Source: an uncultured Sphingomonas sp. (GTDB taxonomy: Bacteria > Pseudomonadota > Alphaproteobacteria > Sphingomonadales > Sphingomonadaceae). Taken from it: a stretch of DNA of 64,000 bases. The notes below the pieces were generated by a model. The model saw only the letters and a list, made by a program, of their open reading frames with translations, was not told where the DNA came from and did not search any database. The stretch is from positions 388 to 64,387 of the forward strand of contig CBINJP010000020.1 in NCBI GenBank assembly GCA_966251045.1. The letters are read 5' to 3'. This document shows positions 21,196 to 37,465 of this stretch, one piece after another (positions within the stretch are counted from its first letter, which is position 1; each line of letters starts with the position of its first letter). Made by a program: the position numbers and the translations under genes.

Positions 21196-21966
21196 TCACT
21201 TGCAAGGCGCCACCAGTGCGTGCGGTGCTTCCTCGAGCGCCTCTCGTGCCGGTTCCGAAGGGCCGGCCAATTGGCGCCGTACCCGGTCCGGCCCCTCATC
21301 GATGACCGCGCGCATCGCCCGCGCCGCCTCCTCGCCATCGCGGCGCTCGATCGCGTCGGCAATCCGCGTGTGGCTGGCGACCGCGGCCTCCATGGCGTCG
21401 ATCTGCAACGGCGTGCTGAGCGCGAAATAGGCCTCGAGCGCCGCCTCGATCACGCTCGCCAGAGACCGGAACAGCGGATTGCCCGACGCGGCCGCGACCG
21501 CGATGTGGAAGTCCAGATCGGCATCGGAAAAGGCGCGCTTGTCGCTACCCGCCGCTCGCGACATCGCCGCGAGCGCCTTCCGCATGTCCGCGATATGGGC
21601 TTCGGTGCGCTGCTCCGCCGCGACCGCCGCCGCCGCCGGCTCGACGGCACGGCGCATTTGCACGAGCTGCTCGAGGAACTGACGATCGAACCCGAGCCGC
21701 ACTTTCCAGGCAAGGATGTCCGGATCGTAATAGCTCCACTGTTCCGGCGGCGAAACGCGTGTGCCCACGCGGGGCTTGGCGATCGCCAGCCCCTTCGCAA
21801 CCAGGGTCTTGGTGATCTCGCGCATCAGGACCCGGGACGCGCCGAACTGGGCGAGCATTTCCTCCTCCGTCGGGAGGCGGCTGCCCGGCGGACGGGCGCC
21901 CGACAGGATCTGGGAACCCAGGATCGCAACGATCTCGTCATGGCGCGCGACGCGGCCGCTACGCAT
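21196..21966 (-). CDS. GntR family transcriptional regulator, FadR (FCD) subfamily
   Basis: N-terminal wHTH (LPTEEEMLAQFGASRVLMREITKTLVAKGL) and a helical FCD-type C-terminal domain (DLDFHIAVAAASGNPLF). Lies upstream of and co-directional with the Zn-dehydrogenase. Confidence 0.85.
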   Translation of the reverse strand: MRSGRVARHDEIVAILGSQILSGARPPGSRLPTEEEMLAQFGASRVLMREITKTLVAKGLAIAKPRVGTRVSPPEQWSYYDPDILAWKVRLGFDRQFLEQLVQMRRAVEPAAAAVAAEQRTEAHIADMRKALAAMSRAAGSDKRAFSDADLDFHIAVAAASGNPLFRSLASVIEAALEAYFALSTPLQIDAMEAAVASHTRIADAIERRDGEEAARAMRAVIDEGPDRVRRQLAGPSEPAREALEEAPHALVAPCK

Positions 21967-22019
21967 GGGCGGCCGGCAAGCGGATATCAGGAGCGGAAAT
22001 GAGCCTGGCCGTGATTGGC

Positions 22020-22100
22020 TGCATTGAAAATCTTATCCCCTCCGGAATCGTAAAGTCCGATATCATATATAAAAATCAGAGTTATTCACCCAAAAAGCGG
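22020..22100 (-). promoter_or_regulatory. AT-rich putative promoter region for the GntR/dehydrogenase operon
   Basis: The locally very AT-rich stretch (gatatcatatataaaaatcagagttattcac) stands out in an otherwise GC-rich intergenic region upstream of the minus-strand regulator. No -35/-10 assignment was attempted. Confidence 0.35.
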
Positions 22101-22204
22101 CGCGGGGCTCCGGCTTCCATGCATGCGCGGCGCGGCAACGGCACCGAGGGTGGGGTGTCGCGCCACCCGCTGGCCGTCCTCCAGTCGACAAGGATGTGCC
22201 GCAC

Positions 22205-22894
22205 CTAAAAGGTGCGGATCCGGATGTCGCGAAACCAGACGCGGTCGCCATGATCCTGCAGCGCGATGCGCCCGCGCGGGACCTTCGCGAAGTGCGGCAT
22301 CGCCTTGAACTTCGATCCCGCAACCAGTGTGTTCCAGTTCGCGTCGCCATAGTTGGTGACGACGATCTGCTCGCCGTTGAGCCAATGCTCGATCCGTCCG
22401 CCGCGCACCATGATCCTGACGCGGTTCCACTCGCCCACCGGCTTGGCGGCCGCCTTTGCGGGTGCGATCAGGTCGTAAAGCGCCCCGGCGCGGTGCGAGG
22501 GCAGCTTCCCGTCCGAATGACGGGCGTCGTCGAGCACCTGCATCTCGAGACCGGTCGACCAGGTGTAGGGCGCGTCCCCCGGCTCCTGCACGAAATAGAA
22601 GATGCCGCTATTGCCGCCCTCGGAGATTTTCCAGTCGAGCTCGAGCTCGAAATCGCCGAATTCCTCGGTGGTGACGAGATCGCCCTCGGTTCCTTCCTTC
22701 CCCAGCGCGATCACGCCGTTCTCGACATGCCAGCGCGTCGGAACCGGCGCGTCCTTGTAGCCGCGCCAGCCGGTGAAATCGGTGCCGTTGAACAAAAGCC
22801 GCCACTCCGAAACCGCGGCATTTTCCGCCGGCGCGCAGGCGAGCACAGTCAGAGCGCACGCGAACATCGCCGCCAGGATCACTGTCCGCATCAT
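22205..22894 (-). CDS. DUF1080 (3-keto-disaccharide hydrolase-like) secreted protein
   Basis: Signal/lipobox-like N-terminus, then WRLLFNGTDFTGWRGY...GDFELELDWKISEGGNSGIFY...ALQDHGDRVWFRDIRI, the typical DUF1080 pattern. Confidence 0.8.
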   Translation of the reverse strand: MMRTVILAAMFACALTVLACAPAENAAVSEWRLLFNGTDFTGWRGYKDAPVPTRWHVENGVIALGKEGTEGDLVTTEEFGDFELELDWKISEGGNSGIFYFVQEPGDAPYTWSTGLEMQVLDDARHSDGKLPSHRAGALYDLIAPAKAAAKPVGEWNRVRIMVRGGRIEHWLNGEQIVVTNYGDANWNTLVAGSKFKAMPHFAKVPRGRIALQDHGDRVWFRDIRIRTF

Positions 22895-22907
22895 TCGATT
22901 TCTCCCG

Positions 22908-23576
22908 TCACGCGCCCATCCTGGCGATCACCTGCTGGATATGCGCCATCGCCTCAGGCGTGGGGCCCGGATACGGCCCCTCGATCGGCGTGTTGCCCAT
23001 ATAGCCGAGCTGCGCCCAGCCTTCCTCGGTCGAATAGTAAGCGCGAAGCGTCAATCTGCGCACATTGGCGAAGAAGGAGGCAGGCTTCTCGAACCCGGGC
23101 TTCACCCGGCCGGCAAAGGCGATGTCGTCGCAGATCGCCGCGCGCTCGCCGTTCGCGGCGTCGGCGAAGGGCTTGCCGAACCGGCGGACGCTTTCGGCAT
23201 CGATCCAGGCAAGGCCCGGCACGATCATCTCGCGATCCTGTTGCTGCCGGGGGTAAGGCGCGCTGATCCATTCGTCGACGAACGCCGGAACCCCGACGGC
23301 GGAGGCGGCACTGTACTGGCCGTCCGCCGGAAGGATCATGTCGCACAGCGCCGCCGCCGCCTTCAGCTCGGTCTTGTTCAGCGTCAGCGGCCAGGGGACC
23401 TTGGGATTGAGCAGGTCGGGATCGACGCCATAGCCCGGCGCGGTGATCGGCGTCAGCTTGATCTCGGGCCATTGCGTTCCCTCCAGCCCGCTGCCTCGCG
23501 CGGACTCCGGGACGGCAAGCGCGGCGGCGAGCCAGGCGAGGGTGGTGCGCCGATCGACGGCGAGCCCCCCGCTCAC
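22908..23576 (-). CDS. Gluconate 2-dehydrogenase subunit 3 family protein (small Tat-exported subunit of a GMC dehydrogenase)
   Basis: Tat-like signal (VDRRTTLAWLAAALAVP). Its start overlaps the GMC oxidoreductase stop by 4 nt. The pairing of this small subunit with a GMC oxidoreductase is well established. Confidence 0.7.
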   Translation of the reverse strand: MSGGLAVDRRTTLAWLAAALAVPESARGSGLEGTQWPEIKLTPITAPGYGVDPDLLNPKVPWPLTLNKTELKAAAALCDMILPADGQYSAASAVGVPAFVDEWISAPYPRQQQDREMIVPGLAWIDAESVRRFGKPFADAANGERAAICDDIAFAGRVKPGFEKPASFFANVRRLTLRAYYSTEEGWAQLGYMGNTPIEGPYPGPTPEAMAHIQQVIARMGA

Positions 23577-25246
23577 AGCTCGCCCTTCCGCAGGCGAGTG
23601 GCGATATGGTCGGCGGACCGCATCGCCAGCGCCATGATCGTCAGCGTCGGGTTCTTGTGCGCCTTGGAGGCGAACACCGCGCCATCGCCGATATAGAGAT
23701 TGTCGACGTCCCAGCAGCGGCCATAGGGATCGGTCACCGAGGTCCTTTTGTCCGCGCCCATACGCGCCGTCCCAACCTCATGGATGATCTCGCCGCCCTT
23801 TCTCAGCGCGCGGTCCGCCGATCGTACCGGCGTGACCAGCTTGCCGCCCATCGCGGTGACGATATCCTGCGTCGTCTTGTGGAAATGATCGACCATGTTC
23901 CGCTCCTGATCGGTCCAGCCGAAGTGGAAGCGCAGCGCGGGGATGCCGAACTTGTCCTTCAGGTCCGGATCGATCTCGCACCAGCTCTTGTCGTTGGGGA
24001 TCATCTCGCCGCGGAGGGTAAACCAGATGCTGGTGCCGTAGCTTTGCCGCGCCGCCGCGCGCAGCCCGGCGCCATAGCCGTCCAGCCCGCCCAGATCGCC
24101 GGGATCGTTGAATCCCCCGCCCACCTCGTAATGATAGCCGCGCGCGAAGTTGAGTTTGCCGGCCTTCTGCTCCTTGTAGAGCCAGAAGGGCATATAGACG
24201 TGCAGCCCCATCGCGCCGTCCTCATTGTAGCGCGGCCGGCCCTCGAGCGCGGGGAACACCGCGCCCAGATCGGCGCCGACGGTATCCATCAGGTTGCGCC
24301 CGAGCTGCCCGCTCGAATTGGCCAGCCCTTCCGACCGCCCCGCCACCTTGGTGTTGAGCAGGATGCGCGCGGTCTCGCCGGTGCTGGCCGCGAGGATCAC
24401 GACCCGGCCGCGCGCCTCGCGCTGGGCCCGAGTCTTGCGATCGATGAAGCGCACGCCCGAGGCCTTGCCGGTCTTGTCGAGCATCACCTCATAGACCATC
24501 GCGTCGGTGCGCACGGTGAGCTTGCCCGTCGCGCGCGCCTGGGGGATCAGCGAGGTCGTGGTCTGAAACGCGGCGCCGATCGCGCAGCCGCGGCCGCATC
24601 CCGACGCCCAGTAACAGGGCTGGCGCGTATCGAGGGCGCGAGTCAGCACCGCCCGCCGCGCCGGGATCACCGGAACCCCGACCTTCCCCGCGCCCGCCTT
24701 CAGGAAAATCTCCCACGCGCGCGGCGCGGGCGGATCGTGCAGCACGCCGTCGCCCGAATTGGGGTGGTTCTCCATGTTCGGGTTGTTGCCGTAGACGCCG
24801 ACGATCGTCTCGGTCCTGTCGTACCAGGGCGCCATCTCGTCATAGCTGACCGGCCAGTCCACCCCCATGCCGTCGCGGGTGAAGGGCTTGAAGTCATATT
24901 CCCCCATCCGGAAGCTGTTGCGCGCCCAATGGTTGGTGCGGCCGCCGAGCATCCGGCTGCGCCACCATTTGAATTCCGTGCCCTCGGCCATCGAATAGGG
25001 TTCGCCGGGAATGTCCCATCCGCCATCCACGGTCGCATCGTAATAGCCGAAATCCTTGTCCGGCGTGCCGACCCCGCGCAGCGGCGCGTCGCGCTCGAAG
25101 TTGAGCATCGCGGCCTCGCCCGGATCATAGTCGCGGCCGGCCTCGAGCATCAGCACCTTCGCCCCGGCCTTGGTGAGCATCCACGCCGCCATCGCGCCGC
25201 CGGCGCCCGATCCCACGACGACTGCATCGTAGCTCTCGATTGCCAT
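23573..25246 (-). CDS. GMC family FAD-dependent oxidoreductase
   Basis: ATG at 25246 (MAIESYDAVVVGSGAGGAMAAWML, an FAD fold). The C-terminal HEVGTARMG...NLYIGDGAVF is typical of the GMC family. Confidence 0.85.
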   Translation of the reverse strand: MAIESYDAVVVGSGAGGAMAAWMLTKAGAKVLMLEAGRDYDPGEAAMLNFERDAPLRGVGTPDKDFGYYDATVDGGWDIPGEPYSMAEGTEFKWWRSRMLGGRTNHWARNSFRMGEYDFKPFTRDGMGVDWPVSYDEMAPWYDRTETIVGVYGNNPNMENHPNSGDGVLHDPPAPRAWEIFLKAGAGKVGVPVIPARRAVLTRALDTRQPCYWASGCGRGCAIGAAFQTTTSLIPQARATGKLTVRTDAMVYEVMLDKTGKASGVRFIDRKTRAQREARGRVVILAASTGETARILLNTKVAGRSEGLANSSGQLGRNLMDTVGADLGAVFPALEGRPRYNEDGAMGLHVYMPFWLYKEQKAGKLNFARGYHYEVGGGFNDPGDLGGLDGYGAGLRAAARQSYGTSIWFTLRGEMIPNDKSWCEIDPDLKDKFGIPALRFHFGWTDQERNMVDHFHKTTQDIVTAMGGKLVTPVRSADRALRKGGEIIHEVGTARMGADKRTSVTDPYGRCWDVDNLYIGDGAVFASKAHKNPTLTIMALAMRSADHIATRLRKGEL

Positions 25247-25440
25247 GTGCGCCCCTCCTTTCGACATCCTGGTTGGCGGCGATCTTGCGCATCGTACGGG
25301 GTCCAAGGCAACCGGCCTCCGAACGATTCTTGCGCCCGCTTCGGCGCGACCCCGGAAAATCGCCCGATGCCAGCCGCCGCTTGCACCGCCACGGGCGTTA
25401 ACTATGCTGCGCGCGAACAGAATCCGCCGGGGGGCGCGAC

Positions 25441-26397: not shown

Positions 26398-27831
26398 TCA
26401 GTTGCAATTGCTCCAGGTTTCCGACGGACCGTTTTCGGATCGCATGACGAGGCTCGCGCCATCGCGCGACGGCTCGTAGCGGTAGATCTTGCCACCCTCG
26501 CGTCCCACCACGGTCCCCGTTTCCCGATCGCGATCGATGATTTCCGCCCTGAACGGGGCCATGCCTTCCACGCGCACAACAAGGGTTCCGCCCTCCACCG
26601 CGACATTGCGGGCGACCTCGCACCGCGGATCGGTGGCATGGCGCCAGCGCCCCTCGACGCTTGGCGCATTCGCGACTTTTGGCGTGGGTGTGGGCGCGGG
26701 CGTCGGTTTGGCCTTCCGCTGCGGGACAGGTGTCTCGATCGCCGCATTCTCCAGCACGACCTCGTTATTCGTGAGCTCGAACGTGGGGACGGGTTCGGTG
26801 CCCCACCGCACCCAGACGATCGCCGCCGCCGCCGCTGCCATCACAAGCAGGCCGGCCGCGATGATCGACAGCGTCAGTCTCCGCCACCGCGGCGTATAGG
26901 TCGGCCAAGGCTCGCCACCACGATCGATCGGGCACGGATCTTTCTCGTCGGAGACGTACCCGGGCGGCTCCGATCTGGGCGCAGCGCCCGGGTCGAGCGT
27001 CAGCCTGTCGGCCCACGCCTCGAGGTCGCTGCCGCGCTTCGCGATGTCCGGCTCGAGCCCATCGACGATCGCGGCGATCAGCCGCTCGCCACGTCCGTTG
27101 GGGAGGTCGATCCGTCCACGAAGGATGTCCGCCATCGCCGCCGAGGCCCCGCGCAGGTCCGCGAGGCGGTCGCGGAAGTCGGGCGGCGCCTCGCCAACGA
27201 TGGTCCGGAACAGCGTCGCGGCCAGCCCGTACAGGTCGGTCCACGGTCCGAGCAGGGCGCGGCGCGATGCGTCCCAGAGTTCAGGCGCGGCGAAGCCGAT
27301 GCGGGCAAGTTCGCGATTGTCGGGCCGGAACGATGCGGTGGAGCGGATATCGATACCGCATCCGATCGGCGAAGCGCCGCTTTCCGTCATCTCGATCATC
27401 TCGGGGTGGACGTCGAGATGCAGCACCTGCCGGCGGTGCATCGCCGCCAGCTCCCTCGCCGCGTCGCGTGCGGTCGCGAGGAGCGCGAGCGGCTCCATCG
27501 GCGGCATTTGATCGAGTGTCGCGAGAGGCCTGGGCGAGACGGTCCACAGGATGCCGTCCTCGGAGCGGATCGCGTCCGTCCCGCCCGGGCGCCGCGTGCA
27601 CGCCCCGGCCATGCCTGTGGAAAGCGCGCGATAGGCGTCGGACGCCTTGGCCGGGATGCCCGCGGCGGGTATCGCCATTCCGTCGGGTCGCAACGGCCCG
27701 GGCAGGAAGGCCCAGGCGAGGTTCCGGGGTTCCTGCCCCTCGATTTCGTAGATCTGCCATTGCGGCGTGATCCGCCACAGGGACGAAAGCCGACCCAACT
27801 CGGCGGGCGGAGTGGGCATGTCCGGGGTCAT
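26398..27831 (-). CDS. Membrane-anchored Hanks-type kinase-like protein (degenerate motifs) with a small Cys-bracketed periplasmic domain
   Basis: ATG at 27831. Has an HRDxKPxN-like loop HLDVHPEMI (27394-27420), an APE-like AAPELW, DLYGLAATLF, GEAPPDF and C-lobe LEPDIAKRGSDLEAWADRL. No GxGxxG is seen. One TM helix (LSIIAAGLLVMAAAAAAIVWV), a Pro/Thr linker and an ~85-aa C-terminal domain follow. Confidence 0.6.
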   Translation of the reverse strand: MTPDMPTPPAELGRLSSLWRITPQWQIYEIEGQEPRNLAWAFLPGPLRPDGMAIPAAGIPAKASDAYRALSTGMAGACTRRPGGTDAIRSEDGILWTVSPRPLATLDQMPPMEPLALLATARDAARELAAMHRRQVLHLDVHPEMIEMTESGASPIGCGIDIRSTASFRPDNRELARIGFAAPELWDASRRALLGPWTDLYGLAATLFRTIVGEAPPDFRDRLADLRGASAAMADILRGRIDLPNGRGERLIAAIVDGLEPDIAKRGSDLEAWADRLTLDPGAAPRSEPPGYVSDEKDPCPIDRGGEPWPTYTPRWRRLTLSIIAAGLLVMAAAAAAIVWVRWGTEPVPTFELTNNEVVLENAAIETPVPQRKAKPTPAPTPTPKVANAPSVEGRWRHATDPRCEVARNVAVEGGTLVVRVEGMAPFRAEIIDRDRETGTVVGREGGKIYRYEPSRDGASLVMRSENGPSETWSNCN

Positions 27832-27862
27832 CGCGGGCAGGCCCTGTAGCGGCTGCGGCGCC

Positions 27863-28189
27863 TCATTTGCGCTCCGCCTTGTCCGCGTCCATCTCGTCGC
27901 GTTCGAAATGGATGCCCTCGTCATCGACCCGCAGATAGGGTTCCACGCGCGCATCCAGCCCATAGAGGCGAACCACGTCGCTCACGTTCGAGACGGGGCC
28001 GTCGCCGGTTTGCTGCGGAACCAGATCGTGCGAGCCGGCGCCAGGGCGCCAGAGGGTATCATAGGGGATGAGCGCGAATCCGATCATCGCGATGCTCGCC
28101 GCCACCGCGGCAGTAACGGGCCAGCGCATTCCCGTCTGCTCCTGGCGGGGCCCCGGGGTCTTGCGTTTCTGGATCCTCTGGAGAGCCAT
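27863..28189 (-). CDS. Small single-pass membrane protein (hypothetical)
   Basis: 108-aa ORF with ATG at 28189. Has a basic N-terminus and one TM helix (WPVTAAVAASIAMIGFALI). It is packed 9 nt after the PBP-like gene and 31 nt before the kinase-like gene. Confidence 0.5.
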   Translation of the reverse strand: MALQRIQKRKTPGPRQEQTGMRWPVTAAVAASIAMIGFALIPYDTLWRPGAGSHDLVPQQTGDGPVSNVSDVVRLYGLDARVEPYLRVDDEGIHFERDEMDADKAERK

Positions 28190-28198
28190 GGCGCGTTC

Positions 28199-30574
28199 CT
28201 AGTTTCCGGGCGCCGGCGCCCGGCAGGGCGTCGTCATCCATCGCAGATAGGCCGAATCGGGAGCGGTCAGCAGTTCGGCGGCGAAGGCGAGCGCGTCGGT
28301 GGTCCGGCGCTGCAGGTTGATGACCAGCACTTTCAGCCCGCAGATTTGCGAGGGCATGGCGGGCAGCGCGCCCGTGCTGGTCCGCACCGCCATCAGCACC
28401 AGGATATGCCCCTGTTCCTTCGCGGGCTGATCGACGTCGGCGGTACCGGTCTTGGCGAAGAAAAAGACACTGCCCTCCACGCCCTGGGGCTGCGCGAGCA
28501 GCTTCCATAACTGTTTGGCGGTGCCCTTCTGGACCACGTTCGACATGGCATCGCGAATCTCGCGCCAGGCCTCCGCATGCATTGCGACGGTATCGGGGGC
28601 GACGTCGCCCTTGGCGGGCGTGAGCCTGGGGCTGATCCCGCGGCCGGAAAGGATGCGCGCATAGGCCTGACCCAGATTGGCGGTACTCCACAGGCTCCGG
28701 TTTCCGCCGATCACGCTCAGGTAGAAATCGATAAAGTCATTGTCCCGCAGCCCCATCATCAGATTGAGCCGCGGCAGTTCGAATGCATTCGACCCGAGCG
28801 GCTGATTGTCCGCGTCGCGCCACAGATGAGGCGAGCAATGGCTGGTGGTCCCATCCCATCCAAGGTCGGGCGCGCCCGGCCGGATGCCATAGGGAATCAC
28901 GCAGCCGAACCGCCAGAGATTCGCCGCCCAGCTTCTTTCGGACGAAAAGCTCTGGCCGGTCCGCTCATCATGCTCGACGCCCTTCTTGGCGAGCACCAGC
29001 GCATATTCGTTGTTGGAGAAAGTGAGGAAGGCATTGAAATCGACCTTCCCGTCGCCGCGATGCCCCGGGGCGTTTTCGATGCCCTGCTTGTCACCCAGCA
29101 TCAGTTGATGCCCATCGACATCGTGAAAGACAGGACGGTAGGGAATGACGAGCTTCAGCAGGTCGGGATAGCGATCGGTCACGGCCGCCGCGAACGGCAC
29201 CTTCGCGGCGGAGCCGATCGTCAGCCCCCGGAAATTCATGTTGGTCCGCAGCCAGTTGAGCCGCGTGCTATCCTCGCGATCGTCCATCGCGAGCTGGTTG
29301 ACCTCGGTGGGGAAGGTCGCCGCGGCGGCGATCTCGCCCGTCAGCCCGTCCATCATCAGTGCCGCGCCGCGATACGAGAAGCGAGGGGGCGATCCGGGCG
29401 CGTTGTCGGCGGTCATCCGCACCGCCAGCCGGCGTTGCAGATCGAGATGCATCCGCCCAACGATCGACGATTCGAAATCGCCGCCCTCGATTCCCGATTG
29501 CTCGAACCATTGCGACACGTCGCGCAGGCTGGGCTCGCGGATCCTCCGGCCAGCCGAGAGTTCGGAAATCGACCCCGGCGTCTCGGCGAGCTGCAGCGTA
29601 CGCTTGCGCCCGCCCTGACCTTCGATCGTCAGGAACTGATCGGGGCGGATCAGCCAGTAACGGACATTGTCATAGGCCGGCTTGGCCTTCCCGGCCTCCC
29701 CCTTCGCGACGAGGCGGCCATCGATATAGATCTGTACCGTGCCGAGCCGCGACGGAATCTCCACCAGCAGCGCCCGGCCGAGCGGCACCAGCGCGATCGC
29801 GGTGGGCTGGAAGGGCGAACCCGGCACGCGCGATTCGAGTGCGAGCACGACGCGCGATGCCTCGCCCCCGTCGAACTCGCCCGCGAAGAGCTGATCGACC
29901 GGGAATTCGGCTTTGGCGCGCCCGCGCGCAAACCTGAAGACGGCGCGCTTCCCGCCGACTTCGGAAAGAACCAGCATCGGCTGGGCGGGGTCATAGCCTT
30001 TCGCCTTGCCCGCGGATTCGCCGCGATAGTTGACGACGCCTTCCCATATCTTTCGCGGCCCGCCCGCCGCGATCAGCACATGCGCGGTGGGCTGCAGGCC
30101 AGCCACACCATTGTCCTCAAGCTGCCAGCGGTTGATCTGCCGCATGTCGAGATCGAGATAGCTGCGGCTCGCATAGGTCATCAGCCGCTTCTCGCACGGC
30201 CCCCGGGGATCCGCGACGAACCAGGGCAGGAAGCGCTGGCGCTCCCACAAGGTCCGGCAATCGCCCCCGGCCTTCAGCACGCGCGCGATCGCGTCCTTGT
30301 CCCACTGGACCCGGATCAGCGGCGGCTGGCCGGGACGCTCGACCATCGTCCGCTTGAACAGGCCTTCGTGCGCCATCTTGTCCACTGCCGCGCGATACCC
30401 GATCTCGGCCGAGAGCTGGCGCGAGCCCGAATTGCCCGCCGGCCAGGGCGGCGAGGCGAGGACCAGCAGCGTTAGCAGCGCGATGCTGAGCGCGATCAGC
30501 ACCTTCTCGGCGCTGACTCGCGGCCACTTGCGCTTGACCTGCGCGGGGGCGTCGCGGCGCGCGAGTTTAGCCAT
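28199..30574 (-). CDS. Divergent class B penicillin-binding-protein-like transpeptidase with a large unknown N-terminal ectodomain
   Basis: ATG at 30574 (MAKLARRD...; the track start at 30610 is a TTG). One TM helix. All three PBP active-site motifs are present with normal spacing: SAAK (29201-29212), SNN (29009-29017) and KTG (28445-28453). The pre-SxxK motif RGAALMMDGLTGEIAAAATFP resembles the conserved bPBP block. Confidence 0.7.
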   Translation of the reverse strand: MAKLARRDAPAQVKRKWPRVSAEKVLIALSIALLTLLVLASPPWPAGNSGSRQLSAEIGYRAAVDKMAHEGLFKRTMVERPGQPPLIRVQWDKDAIARVLKAGGDCRTLWERQRFLPWFVADPRGPCEKRLMTYASRSYLDLDMRQINRWQLEDNGVAGLQPTAHVLIAAGGPRKIWEGVVNYRGESAGKAKGYDPAQPMLVLSEVGGKRAVFRFARGRAKAEFPVDQLFAGEFDGGEASRVVLALESRVPGSPFQPTAIALVPLGRALLVEIPSRLGTVQIYIDGRLVAKGEAGKAKPAYDNVRYWLIRPDQFLTIEGQGGRKRTLQLAETPGSISELSAGRRIREPSLRDVSQWFEQSGIEGGDFESSIVGRMHLDLQRRLAVRMTADNAPGSPPRFSYRGAALMMDGLTGEIAAAATFPTEVNQLAMDDREDSTRLNWLRTNMNFRGLTIGSAAKVPFAAAVTDRYPDLLKLVIPYRPVFHDVDGHQLMLGDKQGIENAPGHRGDGKVDFNAFLTFSNNEYALVLAKKGVEHDERTGQSFSSERSWAANLWRFGCVIPYGIRPGAPDLGWDGTTSHCSPHLWRDADNQPLGSNAFELPRLNLMMGLRDNDFIDFYLSVIGGNRSLWSTANLGQAYARILSGRGISPRLTPAKGDVAPDTVAMHAEAWREIRDAMSNVVQKGTAKQLWKLLAQPQGVEGSVFFFAKTGTADVDQPAKEQGHILVLMAVRTSTGALPAMPSQICGLKVLVINLQRRTTDALAFAAELLTAPDSAYLRWMTTPCRAPAPGN
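29201..29212 (-). other. SxxK (SAAK) putative acyl-enzyme serine motif of the PBP-like protein
   Basis: The reverse complement of 29201-29212 reads TCC GCC GCG AAG (S-A-A-K), within LTIGSAAKVPF. Confidence 0.6.
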
Positions 30575-33140
30575 TGCCCGGCGCCTCCCCGGTTGGCCGT
30601 CCGCAGACAAAGGGCAGCGCCGTCAGCAGCAGCACCGCCATCGCCTCGGCCAGATCGCCGCCCGAGGTCACCGCGAGCAGATAGATGTTCCGCCCGGTGA
30701 ACGGGACCCAGTTCAGATTGGCGAGCACCATATAGGCCGCGGCCCAGAAAAAGGTGATTCGCGCCGCGACCCCGGCGATGCGCGGCCAGTCGCAGGCGGT
30801 ATCGTCCCCGGCTTCGGCATCATCGCGCGGCCTCAGCGCGAGCATCCCCGCCAGGATCACCGCCAGCACCGCCAGCGCACCCAGGCGGCCCCAGGGCCAG
30901 ATGATGTGAACCGCGGCGAGATTGTCCGAATATTGATATTTGCGCAGCGATTGCTGGATGTTCGACTGGGCGAGATATCCATGGCCGATCATCTCGCGGG
31001 TGAGGGGGCCGAGGCTGGTGGTCTGGTCGAGCGATTCGAAGGCGTGGGTGGTGCCGATCTGTTCGACGCGCGAAGGCCAGAGATAGGCGAGCATGCGAAT
31101 GTCGTTGCGATCCCACTCGGAAGTGGTGGCCAAATGCTCGTTGAGCTTCTGCTGGGGTGAGGGAATCTCGCCGCTGAGCGCGATCCCCAGCGCGAACAAG
31201 GCGACCAGCGTGGGCGCCATGGCGAGGGGCATGAGCCACGGCCACCGCTTGACGATCCCGCCAAGCCCTTTCGCGTCCCGAAATCCGAACCAGGCGATCG
31301 CGACCGCGAGCGGTATGCCGTAGACGAGCATCGAACCGAAATCATGGGTCAGCCACGGAACCACGCCATAGGCGGCGAGGAAGAGGACGAGCATCAGTCC
31401 GGTCGAAAGCCCGCGTTTGCGCAGACGCTGCGTACCGTCGAGGAGCAGCGCGAACCCCAGGATCATCGCCGGCACGTAGATCAGGCTCAGCGGCACGCCG
31501 AAGGGCCGCTCGCTGAAGCGCGATCCCAGCAGATAGGCGCCGATCAGCAGCAGGAACAACCGGAAGGCGACCATGGCGACGATGATCGCGATGCCGAGCG
31601 TATAGGTCCGCGGCAGGCGGTCGATCCACGCGAGCAAGGGCCGGACGCGCTGCCAGATACCCTTCTCGCGACGCGGGACCTTCCCGCCGGGGGCTTGCAG
31701 CAGGGCGCCCAGCAACGCGCAGGCGAGCGCCAGCGGGCTCTCGCGTCCCGGCCATACCAACCGTGCCGTCACCGCGACGCCCGTCATGTAAAAGAGGGCC
31801 GCGGGGAGCCCGCCCCAGGCGACCCCGCCCAGCGCGATCGCGATCGCGGTAAAGCCGGCGAGCAGGAGCAATAGGAAAGCGCTCAACATCGGCCGCAGAT
31901 CCGCATCGGCCTGCCGGAAGGCGAGCACGATCAGCATGGGCAGGCAAAGGAAGGATGCCAGTGGATCCCAGAGCACCTCGGTCAGCCCCTGGCGCGAATC
32001 ATAATATAATCCAGCCACGCCAATCAGCAGCCGTAGCGCGAGCAGCCATTGCACCAGCGGCACGAGTACGCGCTCGGGCGTCGGCTTGCGCCACGCCGCG
32101 GCGCAGAGTGCATGCATCGCCAGTGCGCAGAATATCACGAAGAAGCCGGAAAAGACCGGCAGGAACACCTTGCTCGCGTGAAGCGACAACCTGGCGTCGG
32201 CCGCCTCGACGCCGCTGGGCCACGCGAAATCGGTGTCGGTCTTGGCGCAGAGCGACGAGGGTTCGGCCACCGGGCCCAGCCATTTGGCTTCGGCCACGGG
32301 ATTGGCGCCGCCCAGCCCGAGTCCGGTGAAGACGAGATTGTCCGGATCGAGGAATTCCGGCTCCTGTCCGTCGCCGCCCGCCGCGGGCGAAAGGCGCAGG
32401 CGCGGGAGCTTGCACGAGCCGGCATCGGCGACCAGTGGCTCATTCAGGTTGAGCTCGATGACCGGCGAATCGCCGCCCCGCAGATAGAGCGTGAAGGAGC
32501 GCCGCGGGGCCCATTTGCCGTCGAGGTCGATTCTCGAAACGGTGAGCTCGATCGGCTCGCCCGGGATCAACTCGCGTGTCTCGGGCGCACCGGGCTGGAG
32601 CTCGGTATCGCCGATCTTCACGCCCATCCCCGGAATTTCCTGGTCGGACTGCGGCGCGAAGCTCTGGAGCACGATCTCGGCCTTCATCACCGCATCGCTG
32701 TCGGCGGGCCGAGACGGGGCCTTCGCGCGCACCGTCACAAAGGCGCGCGGATCGGCTGGCATCGAAATGCGTGAAAGGCTCTGATCGGCATAGGGCGGTA
32801 CCACCAGGTCCGCCGAATCGCGGCTGTCGCCGACGATCAGGAAGGGCTGGAACTCCGGCGCGGCCGTGTCCTGACGCTTTGCCTCAGTCCCGTCCTCTGC
32901 CCTGGTCGCTTCCGTGGCGACGACGACCGACTGGGGTATCCGCAACTGCATGATCCGGACGGTCAACTGGTCGCCCTCGCCGCCGGCGAGCGCGGCGACG
33001 AAAGCGGCAAAGGGAATGGCGATCAGCAGGAAGGTGCGGAGCAGGCGAAAAACGCCCTTTTCGCCCAGTGACACCCGGTCGAACCATAGCAGCAGGCCGA
33101 ACGCGACGTTCAATCCGGAGAAGATGAGGGTCTCGAACAA
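30567..33140 (-). CDS. Giant SEDS (FtsW/RodA/SpoVE)-like polytopic membrane protein with a ~320-aa N-terminal extension
   Basis: TTG start at 33140, preceded by AAGGA 6 nt upstream. The C-terminal ~520 aa has about 10 hydrophobic helices. SEDS-like blocks are HDFGSMLVYGI (cf. PDLGTAL), GHGYLAQSN (cf. GxGxGxG), QYSDNLAAV (cf. HTDFIFA) and VPFTGRNIYLLAVTSGGDLAEA (cf. PxTGxxLPFxSYGGSS). The N-terminus has two TM helices and a ~270-aa soluble insert. Confidence 0.6.
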   Translation of the reverse strand: MFETLIFSGLNVAFGLLLWFDRVSLGEKGVFRLLRTFLLIAIPFAAFVAALAGGEGDQLTVRIMQLRIPQSVVVATEATRAEDGTEAKRQDTAAPEFQPFLIVGDSRDSADLVVPPYADQSLSRISMPADPRAFVTVRAKAPSRPADSDAVMKAEIVLQSFAPQSDQEIPGMGVKIGDTELQPGAPETRELIPGEPIELTVSRIDLDGKWAPRRSFTLYLRGGDSPVIELNLNEPLVADAGSCKLPRLRLSPAAGGDGQEPEFLDPDNLVFTGLGLGGANPVAEAKWLGPVAEPSSLCAKTDTDFAWPSGVEAADARLSLHASKVFLPVFSGFFVIFCALAMHALCAAAWRKPTPERVLVPLVQWLLALRLLIGVAGLYYDSRQGLTEVLWDPLASFLCLPMLIVLAFRQADADLRPMLSAFLLLLLAGFTAIAIALGGVAWGGLPAALFYMTGVAVTARLVWPGRESPLALACALLGALLQAPGGKVPRREKGIWQRVRPLLAWIDRLPRTYTLGIAIIVAMVAFRLFLLLIGAYLLGSRFSERPFGVPLSLIYVPAMILGFALLLDGTQRLRKRGLSTGLMLVLFLAAYGVVPWLTHDFGSMLVYGIPLAVAIAWFGFRDAKGLGGIVKRWPWLMPLAMAPTLVALFALGIALSGEIPSPQQKLNEHLATTSEWDRNDIRMLAYLWPSRVEQIGTTHAFESLDQTTSLGPLTREMIGHGYLAQSNIQQSLRKYQYSDNLAAVHIIWPWGRLGALAVLAVILAGMLALRPRDDAEAGDDTACDWPRIAGVAARITFFWAAAYMVLANLNWVPFTGRNIYLLAVTSGGDLAEAMAVLLLTALPFVCGRPTGEAPGNG

Positions 33141-33150
33141 GCGCCGTCCT

Positions 33151-33753
33151 TCAGGAAACGACGTTGCTTGAGTAGAGCCAGAAATAGGCCCTGCGCGTGA
33201 CGAAGAGCATCGCGATCGAAATGAGAGCGAGCACGAACAGCGCCGGCCACAACAGCGTGAAGAGCCATCCGAACCAGTTCGGCATCACGTCGAGCACGGG
33301 TGACTTCGCCGCGAGCCAGTCCGCAAAGCCGCAATCGCCGAAATCCTTCGTGACGAGCGTCCGGACCACCTCGCGATGCGCGCCCCATCCCTCGAGCCCG
33401 CAGACATGGGTGACCATCCATTCGCTTTCGCGCTCGGGAAGCGGGACCATCCCGGGGCCGCTCGAATCCAGCGCTCCCGAGCGGCGTACATTGTTCGCCT
33501 CTTCGGCAAGCAGCGTCCGCATGCGCAGCCCGAAACCCGCATCCAGCCTGGTCGCGGCCGCAATCGCGGCTGGCGGCTTCGGCCCCCTGAGATCCTGGTT
33601 GAACGCGGTATTCTGGCTGTCGTTGAAGGTCGGGTTCGTGAACACGCCCAGCACCCAGAGCGACACGAAGAACAGCACCCCCAAGGCCCCGGTCAGCGCC
33701 GCCCACCCCCAGCGGAGCTGGTCGCGAAACAGAAAGGCAAGGATCACCTTCAT
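33151..33753 (-). CDS. Two-TM membrane protein (hypothetical)
   Basis: 200-aa ORF with ATG at 33753. TM helices lie near both ends (WAALTGALGVLFFVSLWVLGVF; WLFTLLWPALFVLALISIAMLFV), flanking a ~120-aa loop with two Cys. It sits 15 nt after the GTPase gene and 10 nt before the SEDS-like gene. Confidence 0.5.
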   Translation of the reverse strand: MKVILAFLFRDQLRWGWAALTGALGVLFFVSLWVLGVFTNPTFNDSQNTAFNQDLRGPKPPAAIAAATRLDAGFGLRMRTLLAEEANNVRRSGALDSSGPGMVPLPERESEWMVTHVCGLEGWGAHREVVRTLVTKDFGDCGFADWLAAKSPVLDVMPNWFGWLFTLLWPALFVLALISIAMLFVTRRAYFWLYSSNVVS

Positions 33754-33768
33754 GGATGCCGCTCCACT

Positions 33769-35256
33769 TCAGAATTCCGGGATAACGCCGGCATGGGCAA
33801 TCCCCGCGAGCCGCCTGCGCACATTGGCTGCCCAGGAATAATGCTGCCGGAACACCCAGTTGCGGCTTCCCAGTTTCCGGGCGAGCGAGATCCACTGCAG
33901 TACCTCGACCACGCCGTGCGGCGGATGCTTGCGGTAGTGCTCGCGGCTCAGCAGATCGCTGTCCGGCGCCCCGAAATATTCGGGCTGATGCCCGTAAAAT
34001 GCAGTCGCATAATCGAATTTCGAGAGCGGAAAAACCGAGATCAGCTGAGCATGCAGATCGCGCCGCGCCTGATGGATCGTATCCCACGGATTTTCGAGCG
34101 GCAGGTTGCCGGCGCGGTCCGCCAGCGCCCGCAACACGCCGGTCTCCGGACGCTCGCGAAGCTCCGCGTTGCGCAGGCGCAGCATCGCGTCATTCTCGTC
34201 ATTGTAGAAGAGCGACAGCGCCCGGTCCGCCTTGGTCAAGGCGAAGAAGGTCGGGCAATCGAACCCGTTCGGGCCGCCGATGGGGCCGCGATTGGTGACA
34301 TAGTGGCTCTTCACCACCGCCGGCGTGACGCGCTTGAAAGCCTCGGCATCGGCAGGGTCGATATTCTCGTGGCGCATATAGCCGAGCACGCTCGCGACGC
34401 GGAATACGCCCGCCGCGAACTCCTCGAGCTGGTCGGTGCCCCTGCGGAAGTCCTTGGCCCATGCCAGCAGATGCGGCTTGGCCTGATTCACCTGCCTTGC
34501 GGCTGCGCGAAGCGCGGCGGGACTGGGAGCCTCGCCCTCCGGCATGCTCAGCTTGGCGAGGCCGGCCTTGGCGTCGGCCAGCACCTCCTTGTCGTCCGCC
34601 GGCATCAACTCTCCGAAGATCATCAGATCGGTCGGGAGCGCGACGATCATCGCCTTGGCGTAATCCATCGCGCCGAGCAGCATCCGCAGTCTGCTATAGT
34701 CGGCGCTGATCAGGTCGTGAGTCTGGTCGCCCGGCATGTCGATCAGCACGAACGTCTTCGGCTTGCCATGGACATAATGGAACTGGAGGTCGCTGGTGCT
34801 CGGCAACGTCGCCGATTCGCCGTCCTCCGCCGTGACCCGCTTGAATTCGGGATCGCTCGGCATGCTGAAGGGCGCCTTAAGCAGCTGCTCCTTCATCCGG
34901 TGCAGCAGCCAGGTCTTGCCGGCGCCGCCGAAGCCGACGAACAGAATCGCGAACAGGCCCTTCGCCTTGATCTCCTTCAACTCGTCGAAGAAAATCTCTT
35001 CCTGGGTCTTTGGCCGAATGGGAATGGTGCCGCCTCGCGCCGCGCCGCCGCCCGGCGCCATGGGCGGAGGAGCCGGGGTCGGGCCGGGGCCGGGACCGGG
35101 CACGGGCAGCGCGACGACCCGTTGAGTCGTCGGTTCGGGGGTCTTGTCGTCCTGCTCTTCCACCTTTTCCCCCGCGCCGAATATCTCGCAAAGGCTGCAT
35201 CGACCCGTTTCAGGATCGATGGGTTCCCGGTGGACACCGCAGACCTCGCTGGCCAC
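33769..35256 (-). CDS. P-loop GTPase (TRAFAC-type motifs) with N-terminal Cys/His cluster and Pro-rich linker
   Basis: GTG start at 35256-35254 overlaps the upstream TAG by 1 nt. Motifs: G1 GFGGAGKT (34912-34935), G3 DMPG (34729-34740) and G4 TKAD (34225-34236). The N-terminus has C-x2-H...C-x2-C (CGVHREPIDPETGRCSLC). There are about 165 aa between G3 and G4. Confidence 0.65.
   Translation of the reverse strand: MASEVCGVHREPIDPETGRCSLCEIFGAGEKVEEQDDKTPEPTTQRVVALPVPGPGPGPTPAPPPMAPGGGAARGGTIPIRPKTQEEIFFDELKEIKAKGLFAILFVGFGGAGKTWLLHRMKEQLLKAPFSMPSDPEFKRVTAEDGESATLPSTSDLQFHYVHGKPKTFVLIDMPGDQTHDLISADYSRLRMLLGAMDYAKAMIVALPTDLMIFGELMPADDKEVLADAKAGLAKLSMPEGEAPSPAALRAAARQVNQAKPHLLAWAKDFRRGTDQLEEFAAGVFRVASVLGYMRHENIDPADAEAFKRVTPAVVKSHYVTNRGPIGGPNGFDCPTFFALTKADRALSLFYNDENDAMLRLRNAELRERPETGVLRALADRAGNLPLENPWDTIHQARRDLHAQLISVFPLSKFDYATAFYGHQPEYFGAPDSDLLSREHYRKHPPHGVVEVLQWISLARKLGSRNWVFRQHYSWAANVRRRLAGIAHAGVIPEF
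34912..34935 (-). other. Walker A / G1 motif of the GTPase
   Basis: The reverse complement reads GGC TTC GGC GGC GCC GGC AAG ACC (G-F-G-G-A-G-K-T). Confidence 0.7.
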
Positions 35257-36701
35257 TAACGCGCCTTGAGCAGCATCATCGCGAAGAAGAGCGATTCAAC
35301 CACCGGCCAATGCCGATGCCCGCACCCCTCCGAATAATATTCACGCTGCAGGACAGTGGTCGACAACGCTTCCAGAACCCCCCGAGACTTGGTTGAGATA
35401 ATCTTCAACAAATCCTTGCTTGTCAAAACAAGAAGGTCGCGCCGGAATGCCGGAGGCCATGATTTGATGGTCGCCTTGAGCTTCTCGAACGATTCGTTCC
35501 GGGGTTCGAGCGTGTCGATCGATTTTCGAATCAACGAGATGATGTTTCCGCGCAGATCCGGATCGGTCGCGGTCTTGCCGGACCGCGTCGCTTCGAGCGC
35601 ATATCCCACCAATTCGGACAGGTCGCCGGCATGGACGTTCCCGTCCATCTGCTTGCCGTAGCAGGCCAGCGCGAGCGCGGCGAAATCGGGCGAGCCACTG
35701 CCCATTGCCTTCAGCACGGCGCTCAGCGGCGCGTCCATCCCCTGTTCGTGAAGCGCCGCGACATATTCGGGCTGCACGCTGCGTACCGCGCCCGCCAATG
35801 CAGGCACCCCGGCATCCCGGAAAGTACCGAGCAGCTCGAGCATGGTCAGGGGGGGGAGCGCGCTGCTGGCCATGCGCAGCGCATCCGCCGCCACGCGCTC
35901 GGCCGGCAGCGCGCCATAGCCCTGGCGCCATTTCAGTGCGGACACTGCCGGCGCGAAATTATTCTTCCCGCCGATATGCTGCTTGGCCGCCTCCCAGGCG
36001 AGCCAGGCCGGCGGCGGCGGGGCGGCAGGCTTCTCGCCGTCCGATTTCATGGAATAGGGCAACAGACCCGGCGGCGGTGCCGCGACGGGCTCGGTAGCGA
36101 CCACCAGCTGGCTGTCCCGAAGCAGATCGAGCCCTCCGCGCGGCACCAGCTGCGCCGAGGTCGCCCAGCCGGCTACTCGCGGCCGTTCCTCGACGGGCCA
36201 AACCGACCGAAGCGCTTCGATCAGGATGGCATCGCGGTCCTCGTCACGCTCGACCAGGATCAGGCGATCGGCCCAGGCCAGGCCCAGATCCGGCCAGTCC
36301 AACTGCTCCTGCTCCGGAACGGCCACCTCTACGGGATCGCGCCCGAAATTGCCGGTCCCGTCGGGCTCCTTGATCTCGCCCAGCACCAGTTCGGTGCGAT
36401 GGCCGAGCGCCGCCAGACTCGCGCTGTCGATCATTACGCCATTCAGAAAGGCTTCTTCGCCCAGCGCGCCGCGACCGCGATACCACGCGCGGAACACGAC
36501 CGCGCCCTCGCCCTCGGGCAGCGCCACGCACGCGGCGAAGCTCTTCTCATCCGTTCTGGACCATTCCATCAGCACCATCGCCAGGTCGGTGGCGCGGGTG
36601 AAGGCGATGGGCGAGGATTGGGCAAGCACGCGATAATTGCGCCCCTGCGATTGCGGCCCGATCACGAAGGTCGGCAGCGTGAGCCGCCCGCCTCCAGTCA
36701 T
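35256..36701 (-). CDS. Hypothetical 481-aa soluble protein, candidate GTPase partner
   Basis: ATG at 36701 forms an ATGA overlap with the upstream gene stop (36698-36700). I recognise no motif. The N-terminal ~120 aa alternate beta/alpha-like segments. There is a Pro-rich linker (PVAAPPPGLLP...KPAAPPPPAW). The C-terminal half is helical, with visibly lower GC. Confidence 0.55.
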   Translation of the reverse strand: MTGGGRLTLPTFVIGPQSQGRNYRVLAQSSPIAFTRATDLAMVLMEWSRTDEKSFAACVALPEGEGAVVFRAWYRGRGALGEEAFLNGVMIDSASLAALGHRTELVLGEIKEPDGTGNFGRDPVEVAVPEQEQLDWPDLGLAWADRLILVERDEDRDAILIEALRSVWPVEERPRVAGWATSAQLVPRGGLDLLRDSQLVVATEPVAAPPPGLLPYSMKSDGEKPAAPPPPAWLAWEAAKQHIGGKNNFAPAVSALKWRQGYGALPAERVAADALRMASSALPPLTMLELLGTFRDAGVPALAGAVRSVQPEYVAALHEQGMDAPLSAVLKAMGSGSPDFAALALACYGKQMDGNVHAGDLSELVGYALEATRSGKTATDPDLRGNIISLIRKSIDTLEPRNESFEKLKATIKSWPPAFRRDLLVLTSKDLLKIISTKSRGVLEALSTTVLQREYYSEGCGHRHWPVVESLFFAMMLLKAR

Positions 36702-37465
36702 CCGCCCGAACCTCTCCGCGTTGGCGCTGGCCCGCAATCGGTGCTCGCGTTGGGCCGTACCTTCGCCAAGTTTTGCTCAACCCTGCAAAGTTCGTTCGTA
36801 TCGCGATACTTGTTTGTCGCCGCGCAACCCACTTTGAAGCCCTCAGAAGCGCGAATCCGCGCTATTTCCGCATCGATATTCCACCTCGCCTGGCAGATTT
36901 TCAGGTCGGCGTCGGACACTGCCTTACGTGCTTCATTGCCCAAGGCCAGTTCGCGCTCCTGCCCGGCGCTGTTTTGTGAGAAATAAAGGGCTGCGCCACC
37001 CAATAGTAACGCGAGCGGTAGCGCGATCAAAATAAACAGAAGGAATTGCCTCACTTGGACAGTCCGGGCCCACCGGCTTGTACCATCTTCGCCGGGCGGC
37101 TTGCCCTCGACCGGCGGATCGGAGTCCAGCGGTGCTTCGGCGGTCACGGGCTCGTCCGGCGGTATGGAAGGGAGCGGCGGGTCCGGGACTTCGCTCTTCG
37201 GTGGGTCCTTCGGGCCGAGGGTCTTCGGCAACTTTGCGATCACCGCATCGGCCACCGCCTGCGCGTCGGGCCAGGCGATTCCCTTCAGACTTGCCGTCAT
37301 CGACGATTTAATCTGCGCGTCGATCGATTCCTTGAAGGCCTTGTCCAGCCCTGTCTGACGCCCCGCCGCGACTTCCCTCGCGATGAATTCAAGCACGAAC
37401 TCCGCCATTTGCTGCTGGAGGGTCGCGAAGGCGTCCGGTTCTTCTTGTTCGTCGGTGGCGCTCAT
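36698..37465 (-). CDS. Bitopic membrane protein: acidic cytoplasmic N-terminus, Pro-rich linker, four-Cys C-terminal domain (hypothetical)
   Basis: 255-aa ORF with ATG at 37465, the first gene of the operon. Has a TM helix FLLFILIALPLALLLGGAALYF and a C-terminal segment with 4 Cys (KICQARW...GCAATNKYRDTNELCRVEQ...STDCGP). Confidence 0.55.
   Translation of the reverse strand: MSATDEQEEPDAFATLQQQMAEFVLEFIAREVAAGRQTGLDKAFKESIDAQIKSSMTASLKGIAWPDAQAVADAVIAKLPKTLGPKDPPKSEVPDPPLPSIPPDEPVTAEAPLDSDPPVEGKPPGEDGTSRWARTVQVRQFLLFILIALPLALLLGGAALYFSQNSAGQERELALGNEARKAVSDADLKICQARWNIDAEIARIRASEGFKVGCAATNKYRDTNELCRVEQNLAKVRPNASTDCGPAPTRRGSGG

Follow-up and report, generated by a model that had tools for sequence, protein, structure and literature searches.

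A stretch of 64,000 nucleotides from an uncultured Sphingomonas sp. (GenBank assembly GCA_966251045.1, contig CBINJP010000020.1, positions 388 to 64,387 of the forward strand; hereafter the window) carries on its minus strand a gene for an 857-residue membrane protein, g5, whose polytopic C-terminal part has, judging by its structural model, the SEDS fold. SEDS proteins are the FtsW/RodA/SpoVE family (Pfam PF01098), and the pairs that they form with penicillin-binding proteins of class B (bPBPs) are core bacterial cell-wall synthases and prime antibiotic targets. The gene that follows g5, here called g6, encodes a divergent bPBP. We consider it probable that g5 and g6 make up an accessory SEDS-bPBP peptidoglycan synthase, with g5 belonging, very remotely, to the structural family of the SEDS polymerases of lipid-linked glycans, and that the pair belongs to an envelope module of its own comprising eight genes (g1 to g8).

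Gene, fold and membrane topology of g5

The g5 gene spans positions 30567-33140 including the stop codon (all coordinates for g5 and the other cluster genes are on the minus strand), as judged from the translation of the open reading frame (ORF), its homologues and a model computed with AlphaFold2 (AF2). It had been proposed in a first-pass annotation made by a model from the sequence alone, and that reading of the gene holds, including the TTG start and its good AAGGA ribosome-binding site. Gene calls made independently on further contigs from metagenomes give the same 857-residue product, the N-termini of the homologues (MLETAVF, MIHTILY and similar) back the TTG at 33138-33140, and a GAAGGA lies 7-12 nucleotides upstream, where it overlaps the TGA stop of g4. 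Nine full-length homologues share 43-49% identity with g5 (E-values down to 0), and an exhaustive profile search of the family gathered 426 cluster representatives at E ≤ 1e-3, 293 at 1e-10 and 99 at 1e-30; together with the mean predicted local distance difference test score (pLDDT) of 92.3 for the AF2 model, these homologues place g5 far beyond chance. The listed representatives are about 720-1120 residues long, evident fragments aside, and the source databases name the relatives 'hypothetical' or leave them unnamed.

The AF2 model was computed template-free from a 78-sequence alignment and has, besides its high pLDDT, a predicted template modelling score (pTM) of 0.92. When it was compared by Foldseek with 350,542 PDB chains, the four best matches were all SEDS proteins, each at a Foldseek probability of 1.00: Thermus thermophilus RodA twice (6pl6_A, E 1.3e-3, target TM-score 0.55; 6pl5_A, E 2.5e-3, 0.54), Pseudomonas aeruginosa FtsW (8p1u_A, E 4.8e-3, 0.55) and Escherichia coli RodA (8tj3_B, E 5.0e-3, 0.51). 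WaaL came fifth (7tpg_B, E 5.3e-2, probability 0.90, target TM-score 0.34), and below it stood unrelated channels and transporters with low probability (≤0.21 in the next few). The structural kinship of SEDS enzymes and WaaL, together with the Foldseek ranking, leads us to assign the SEDS fold to the modelled C-terminal part of g5 and to place it nearer to the polymerases of peptidoglycan than to WaaL, a ligase. The first-pass annotation had named a different transporter or flippase family as the outcome that would speak against its SEDS-like reading; the polytopic domain lands among the SEDS structures instead.

The model contains 15 long helices, of which the last ten (residues ~415-846) correspond to transmembrane helices (TMs) 1-10 of SEDS proteins. 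This SEDS-fold core (residues 409-857, TM6-15; 30570-31916), delimited by Foldseek and a relaxed hhalign alignment, carries a cytoplasmic insertion at ~463-510 and a 91-residue periplasmic loop at 656-740 that resembles extracellular loop (ECL) 4. Ahead of the core, hydropathy, the helices of the model and the density of lysine and arginine define a TM1-TM2 hairpin (residues 1-52, with hydrophobic helices at 3-20 and 29-52; 32985-33140). A soluble stretch of 277 residues follows, which forms a domain rich in beta-sandwiches (residues 53-328; 32157-32984) according to an AF2 model of the domain, the topology and conservation. Three extra helices (TM3-5, residues 329-408; 31917-32156), seen in both hydropathy and the AF2 model, then lead into the core. 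The two helices and a soluble insert of about 270 residues had been recognised in the first-pass annotation; the extension proves larger than it supposed, with three more TMs before the core.

The annotation had also placed this insert in the cytoplasm, which the charge distribution contradicts. In 78 family members, the density of lysine plus arginine is 0.165 on the side opposite the soluble domain and 0.066 on the domain side, a 2.5-fold difference that amounts to 23 versus 4.9 such residues per protein; it is 0.19 in the loop between TM1 and TM2, which is assigned to the cytoplasm, and 0.005 in the N-terminal tail. By the positive-inside rule, the side poorer in these residues is periplasmic, and the soluble domain and the DxG, ECL4-like and PFTG loops are therefore assigned to the periplasm, so that all putative catalytic loops of g5 are predicted on that side. 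Since the N-terminal tail is devoid of positive charge, TM1 is taken to have its N-terminus outside and not to be a signal peptide. Two cysteines of the soluble domain, C243 and C298, fit a periplasmic location; they are invariant in the nine closest homologues and present in under half of 132 representatives of clusters at ≤50% identity, the set from which all conservation counts for g5 are taken. Halfway along the extra TM4 sits an intramembrane arginine, R370 (codon 32031-32033), which is present in 132/132. Binding the pyrophosphate of a substrate linked to a lipid is one conceivable role for it, and standing in for the Arg-Lys of SEDS ECL1 is another.

Modelled alone with AF2 from a 24-sequence alignment, residues 51-331 give strand-rich sandwiches with a pLDDT of 90.1 and a pTM of 0.90. 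Foldseek against the PDB returned a best match at E=0.08 and weak matches to C2 and FN3 domains and to a phage baseplate protein; the modelled domain has no identifiable relative. The first-pass annotation had offered, as a weak idea, that residues 98-205 (32526-32849) resemble an FHA domain, and had itself remarked that the canonical G-R, S-x-x-H and N-G residues are absent, as they are. The idea does not survive the confident domain model, whose 50 best PDB matches include no FHA domain, and the predicted periplasmic location makes a reader of phosphothreonine implausible.

Conserved residues and the adjacent penicillin-binding protein

The catalytic residue of E. coli RodA (EcRodA) is D262, and its modelled active site comprises R48-K49, K97-W102, R109-Q111, D159-L160, E258-F263 and S340-G343 (PMC10449877); in FtsW, the equivalent catalytic residue is D297 (PMC8765783). 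Counterparts of both RodA aspartates are present in g5. D739, in Y-S-D-N-L (codon 30924-30926), corresponds to EcRodA D262 and E. coli FtsW (EcFtsW) D297 and is aspartate in 131/132 sequences and glutamate in the other one. D600, in T-H-D-F-G (codon 31341-31343), corresponds to D159 in the QPDLG motif of EcRodA, is likewise aspartate in 131/132 and lies on a loop predicted to be periplasmic. A third block, P813-F-T-G-R-N818 (30687-30704), occupies the periplasmic loop before the last TM as the counterpart of SEDS P-x-x-G...S-Y-G-G and is followed by S826, D829 and E832. Five residues are invariant throughout the 132 sequences (G602, R682, G719, G751 and G816), and S826 (131/132), E832 (130/132), T815 and E544 (129/132 each) are nearly so. 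The sequence blocks quoted in the first-pass annotation, HDFGSMLV (599-606), GHGYLAQSN (719-727), QYSDNLAAV (736-744) and VPFTGRNIYLLAVTSGGD (812-829), are all found in g5. Its 'essential Asp', the D of HDFG, is D600, exactly at the codon it gave; this is an active-site residue by its equivalence to D159, while the counterpart of the catalytic aspartate proper is D739, in another of the quoted blocks.

These equivalences were drawn with hhalign between the g5 family and 13 SEDS sequences (nine of them enterobacterial; EcRodA and EcFtsW as encoded in NC_000913; and two that were reconstructed from PDB alignments, P. aeruginosa FtsW and T. thermophilus RodA). The local alignment is collinear over 131 columns with all conserved blocks paired: R682 with EcRodA R210, GHGYL with GKGWL, Y-S-D739-N-L-A-A-V with H-T-D262-F-I-F-A-V, W-G-R-L-G with E-L-G-L-V-G, and P-F-T-G with P-V-V-G. 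A relaxed run extends the collinearity to g5 407-856 against the whole of EcRodA (3-370) and adds the pairing of T-H-D600-F-G with Q-P-D159-L-G. Thus, the g5 motifs follow one another in the same order as the SEDS motifs QPDLG, GxGxG, HTDF and PxxG...SYGG. The pairing of D739 with D262 recurs in three hhalign runs, in alignments that are statistically weak (P 0.02).

The conservation also bears on whether g5 might be an inactive scaffold, a pseudoenzyme that has kept the SEDS fold. Its extreme sequence divergence and the loss of several SEDS active-site elements would suit such a protein. Pseudoenzymes usually lose catalytic residues, however, whereas D600, D739, G602, G719, G751, G816 and S826 show no or almost no variation among the 132 divergent sequences. 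Because the catalytic residues of g5, and those of g6 described below, are conserved almost absolutely, we regard a pseudoenzyme as very improbable.

The partner gene, g6 (28199-30574), was delimited from its motifs, profile matches and gene calls. Mechanical translation yields an ORF of 803 residues from a TTG at 30610, and independent gene calls give 791 residues from an ATG at 30572-30574, so placed that the start of g6 overlaps the end of g5 by 8 nucleotides; residue numbers here follow the 803-residue ORF. The SxxK, SxN and KTG motifs of the transpeptidases (S467-A-A-K470, S532-N-N534 and K720-T-G722) are invariant in a 46-sequence orthologue alignment. Searched against the PDB, the family profile finds first the T. 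thermophilus PBP2 chain that is the partner of RodA (6pl5_B, E 1e-13), then FtsI, PBP2, PBP3 and PBP2x structures; over 50 chains of bPBPs reach E<1e-3. hhalign against E. coli PBP2 and FtsI gives a probability of 93.7% (E 1.9e-7) and sets S467 on the active-site S330 of E. coli PBP2. The protein has an N-terminal TM anchor at about residues 37-57, and some 350 residues precede its transpeptidase domain, of which only a junction motif, S-L-D-x-x-L-Q, aligns with bPBPs. The adjacent PBP-like protein mentioned in the first-pass annotation is therefore a class B PBP, by its invariant motifs and its profile match to T. thermophilus PBP2. The association of the two genes is nearly obligate: of the 53 loci whose downstream sequence extends for 2.5 kb or more, 52, ranging from Alphaproteobacteria to Acidobacteriota, have the PBP-like gene directly downstream of the SEDS-like gene, the sole exception (L067, 10001-10588) being a metagenome-assembled genome of the Pseudomonadota with 10 kb of downstream sequence, in which no PBP-like gene was detected.

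Several results weigh against reading g5 and g6 as a SEDS-bPBP synthase. First, family searches do not recognise g5. The alignment to the RodA/FtsW family profile that the first-pass annotation had suggested yields no match of g5 to PF01098 at E≤0.1, none of 52 diverse relatives matches the hidden Markov model (HMM) of PF01098 or of the O-antigen ligases (Wzy_C) even at E≤1, and NCBIfam and PADLOC scans of g5 return nothing. No SEDS chain was found by phmmer or hmmsearch among PDB sequences with the single g5 sequence or with 9-, 78- and 132-sequence profiles, whose only matches were spurious (SRP receptor beta, E 1e-3). Second, the hhalign comparison with the 13 SEDS sequences has a probability of 2.2% (P=0.021), and its score was reached by 1 of 100 column-shuffled SEDS control profiles (empirical P ~0.01-0.02), so that the sequence evidence for g5 as a SEDS protein is, on its own, marginal. 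The residue equivalences derive from these weak alignments and not from model coordinates, and the Foldseek E-values of the SEDS matches are modest (1e-3 to 5e-3). Third, parts of the SEDS active site are reduced. An equivalent of R48-K49 in ECL1 of EcRodA is not evident in g5 (the alignment there has low confidence), and the ECL2 region, R-W-x-D-L-G...F-Q-P-S-E in SEDS proteins, is a short G-S-R-F-S-E544-R-P-F-G loop, in which matching E544 to the glutamate of QPSE likewise depends on a low-confidence alignment. We therefore take the active site to be remodelled, possibly for another substrate. Fourth, the single g6 sequence scores under the Pfam Transpeptidase cut-off (16.8 versus 22.1 bits), and for a pedestal (PBP_dimer) domain g6 has neither a Pfam match nor detectable similarity. 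The SEDS-like reading of the first-pass annotation is thus upheld by the fold, in which the top four PDB matches are SEDS, and fails in the HMM and PDB sequence searches.

It is this remodelled active site that keeps an alternative alive, namely that g5 is a protein of the SEDS/WaaL (GT-C class B) fold acting on some other undecaprenyl-linked glycan, as a polymerase or ligase of a surface polysaccharide or of a modified wall precursor, with g6 as a peptidase, carboxypeptidase or attachment enzyme. The appearance of WaaL as the fifth structural match (probability 0.90) and the failure of the SEDS family HMM on g5 and its relatives would be expected of such an enzyme; the ECL1 and ECL2 active-site elements known from RodA (PMC10449877) are unrecognisable in g5, and the five extra TMs, with the invariant R370, and the novel periplasmic domain could form a different substrate site. 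On the other hand, SEDS structures outscore WaaL (target TM-score 0.51-0.55 versus 0.34), the order of the g5 motifs is specific to SEDS proteins, 52 family members give no match to the Wzy_C/O-antigen ligase HMM, and a neighbouring bPBP whose catalytic motifs are intact, present in 52/53 loci, is the hallmark of the peptidoglycan SEDS enzymes. We therefore judge a different glycan substrate unlikely, and the most plausible of the alternatives to a peptidoglycan synthase; a sensing or conflict module, discussed below, comes next and the pseudoenzyme last.

The gene cluster and its distribution

The eight genes occupy 11 kb (26398-37465), none of them reaching a curated Pfam or NCBIfam threshold, and their spacing of -40 to +31 nucleotides is consistent with one operon. 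The first, g1 (36698-37465), encodes a 255-residue protein with one TM and has syntenic genes of 220-222 residues in the closely related loci L001 and L002. It is followed by g2 (35256-36737), a soluble protein of 493 residues for which no match in PDB or Pfam and no relatives of known function were detected, and by g3 (33769-35256), which combines a Zn-ribbon, a proline-rich linker and a TRAFAC-type GTPase. The GTPase motifs of g3 (G1 GFGGAGKT, G3 DMPG and G4 TKAD) are conserved in 29 orthologues, of which seven match MMR_HSR1 and three weakly match the Pfam family DO-GTPase2; further weak matches are to GPN-loop, Der and Arf-like GTPases, and the cysteine-rich N-terminus has a weak match in the PDB to ArnA, in its zinc-ribbon part. 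Next to g5 lies g4 (33151-33753), a 200-residue protein with two TMs, supported by gene calls and by syntenic genes of 209-217 residues in L001 and L002. A mechanical 325-residue ORF at 33110-34087, which might pass for the upstream gene, was rejected in its favour, being an off-frame Arg/Gly-rich translation in DNA of 67% GC.

Downstream of g6, gene calls and synteny in close relatives define g7 (27863-28189), a single-TM protein of 108 residues. The last gene, g8 (26398-27831), encodes a 477-residue kinase-like protein with one TM and a periplasmic tail, as judged from weak matches to kinase families and a 14-orthologue alignment. Its catalytic loop, H-L-D-V-H-P-E-M, is without the lysine and asparagine of HRDxKxxN, and a clear Gly-rich loop is not seen; by these features a pseudokinase, or else a kinase of an atypical kind, is the probable identity of g8. 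The periplasmic tail is entirely different from lineage to lineage, that of the orthologue in L009 being several hundred residues longer than the tail of g8 in the window.

A scan of one genome for each of 185,579 species found 66 loci with a gene of the SEDS-like family. The carriers include Caulobacterales (only some Caulobacter spp., Asticcacaulis biprosthecium C19 and Brevundimonas), Sphingomonadales, Rhizomicrobium, other Alphaproteobacteria and Acidobacteriota (Holophagae, Thermoanaerobaculia and Acanthopleuribacter); A. biprosthecium C19, Caulobacter sp. Root343, Sphingosinicella sp. YJ22 and Acanthopleuribacter pedis are among the culturable ones. The full order from g1 to g8 is common to the close relatives L001 and L002. 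Upstream of the SEDS-like gene, g3 is found in 32 and g2 in 25 of the 51 loci with enough sequence on that side, and even Acidobacteriota loci keep g3 together with the SEDS-like/PBP-like pair; the kinase-like gene could be recognised in 14/46 loci. In the distant loci P0010 and P0011, several unannotated genes are followed by a large SEDS-like gene, a PBP-like gene and a small gene. No plasmid copies were found by tblastn, and neither the window nor any of the 66 loci retrieved contains a canonical SEDS gene, a result that concerns these stretches and not a housekeeping RodA or FtsW elsewhere in the carriers. A MreB gene stands next to the cluster in L002; it is unique to that locus and was set aside as coincidence.

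Such a sporadic, accessory distribution (66 loci in all the species genomes) is also what one would see if the cluster were a defence-type module of conflict or stress response, in which the SEDS-like and PBP-like proteins act as envelope sensors or effectors, responding for instance to wall damage or beta-lactams and signalling through the kinase-like protein and the GTPase. A weak resemblance of g8 to defence-associated kinases (PD-T4-6, MADS6), the weak DO-GTPase2 matches of 3/29 g3 orthologues, the Tc toxin locus that the cluster adjoins in the window and an HTH/Peptidase_M78 pair near the cluster in the P0010 locus point the same way. Set against these are the PADLOC scan, which gives no matches for g1-g7, the genes flanking the cluster, which vary from locus to locus, and the lack of plasmid copies in the search above. 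Moreover, the equivalents of the glycosyltransferase aspartates and the transpeptidase triad are conserved almost absolutely, which argues for catalysis and not only sensing. For this reason we think a pure sensing or conflict module quite improbable, and prefer a peptidoglycan synthase.

Two other gene groups of the window may be recorded. The Tc (ABC) toxin locus (37925-55580, plus strand) is divergently adjacent to the cluster and is not linked to it in other loci. Its first gene encodes a 2669-residue TcB/TcC-type fusion (SpvB, TcdB middle N and C, FG-GAP and a C-terminal Ntox5), and its second a 3210-residue TcA-type protein (ABC_toxin_N, neuraminidase-like and TcA_TcB_BD) with an unusual N-terminal PG_binding_1 domain. 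On the other side lie genes of sugar metabolism (15646-25306), which look like ordinary context: a GH2 glycosidase (15646-18384), a Zn-dependent dehydrogenase (20093-21103), a 3-keto-disaccharide hydrolase (22205-22894) and a GMC oxidoreductase (23573-25306).

Proposed mechanism and known systems

In the mechanism that we propose, the core of g5, formed by its last ten TMs, would polymerise lipid II into glycan strands, with D739 on the ECL4-like periplasmic loop as the equivalent of the catalytic aspartate and D600 as the second active-site aspartate, and g6 would cross-link the stem peptides with Ser467 as its nucleophile. The two would be a cognate pair, co-transcribed and translationally coupled, that forms a complex and works like RodA-PBP2 and FtsW-FtsI. 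The cytoplasmic GTPase g3, together with g2, the small membrane proteins g1, g4 and g7, and the membrane-anchored, probably inactive kinase-like g8 as a sensor, may place the synthase or switch it on. Such roles would parallel those of MreB, MreCD and RodZ in the elongasome, or of FtsZ and FtsQLB in the divisome. As the cluster occurs only sporadically among species, it is probably an accessory, condition-specific synthase and not a housekeeping one.

A bolder form of this proposal, which we regard as possible rather than probable, is that the cluster represents a third SEDS-bPBP morphogenetic machine beside the elongasome and the divisome, with a GTPase switch and a pseudokinase sensor of its own. 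In it, the five-helix and periplasmic module of g5 would replace the active-site loops of SEDS proteins or activators of the MreC/FtsQLB type, and the machine would make specialised peptidoglycan, specific to a site or a stress, in Caulobacterales, Sphingomonadales, Rhizomicrobium and Acidobacteriota, having been missed by every domain-based census.

Searches of the literature turned up no description of the g5 family. What is new in g5 is its position outside the SEDS sequence family, its N-terminal module of 400 residues and its gene context; the SEDS fold and the logic of the pair are known. A recent census of SEDS proteins and bPBPs used PF01098/IPR001182 (PMC12516126), and the g5 family would therefore have escaped it. 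With at least 426 cluster representatives, the clade has kept the fold and the two aspartates while doubling in size, losing recognisable ECL1 and ECL2 and gaining a periplasmic domain. It thereby reveals the extent to which divergence of the SEDS scaffold is possible and offers a natural experiment for telling the indispensable parts of the active site from the rest. That the pair is conserved in company with a GTPase and a kinase-like protein suggests a new mode of control of wall synthesis, and the culturable carriers make the cluster accessible to experiment.

Among known systems, RodA-PBP2 (MrdB-MrdA) is the closest. Its structures, from T. thermophilus (6PL5/6PL6) and E. coli (8TJ3), include the best matches to the g5 core; the motifs are collinear, including both active-site aspartates, a class B PBP gene is adjacent and co-oriented, and the g6 family finds its best PDB match in T. 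thermophilus PBP2. There are several differences, however. First, g5 has 857 residues and 15 TMs as opposed to about 370 residues and 10 TMs in RodA, the surplus including the 277-residue periplasmic domain and the cytoplasmic insertion. Second, g5 is missed by the family HMM and its ECL2 is much reduced, while g6 has no recognisable pedestal. Third, the operon partners of g5 are a GTPase, a kinase-like protein and membrane proteins, not MreBCD or RodZ.

FtsW-FtsI of P. aeruginosa (8P1U, 8BH1), which supplies the third-best structural match of g5, shares the SEDS-bPBP logic, and its system likewise involves a GTPase of the cytoplasm (FtsZ) and small accessory proteins of the bitopic type. Unlike FtsZ, g3 is a Zn-ribbon TRAFAC protein and not tubulin-like, the cluster lies outside a dcw context, and no sequence similarity is detectable. 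The O-antigen ligase WaaL (7TPG), the fifth match, is likewise polytopic, with a periplasmic active site and undecaprenyl-linked glycans as substrates, but its TM-score is lower, the g5 family has no Wzy_C match and WaaL is not paired with PBPs.

A further parallel is the actinobacterial fhaA-fhaB-pstP-rodA-pbpA-pknA-pknB operon, which encodes active Hanks kinases with PASTA domains and separate cytoplasmic FHA proteins. There, as in the cluster described here, SEDS and bPBP genes stand together with a gene for a membrane protein of the Ser/Thr-kinase type that has an extracytoplasmic domain. In contrast to that operon, g8 is without the catalytic lysine and asparagine, no FHA domain was found in g5, and a GTPase is present instead.

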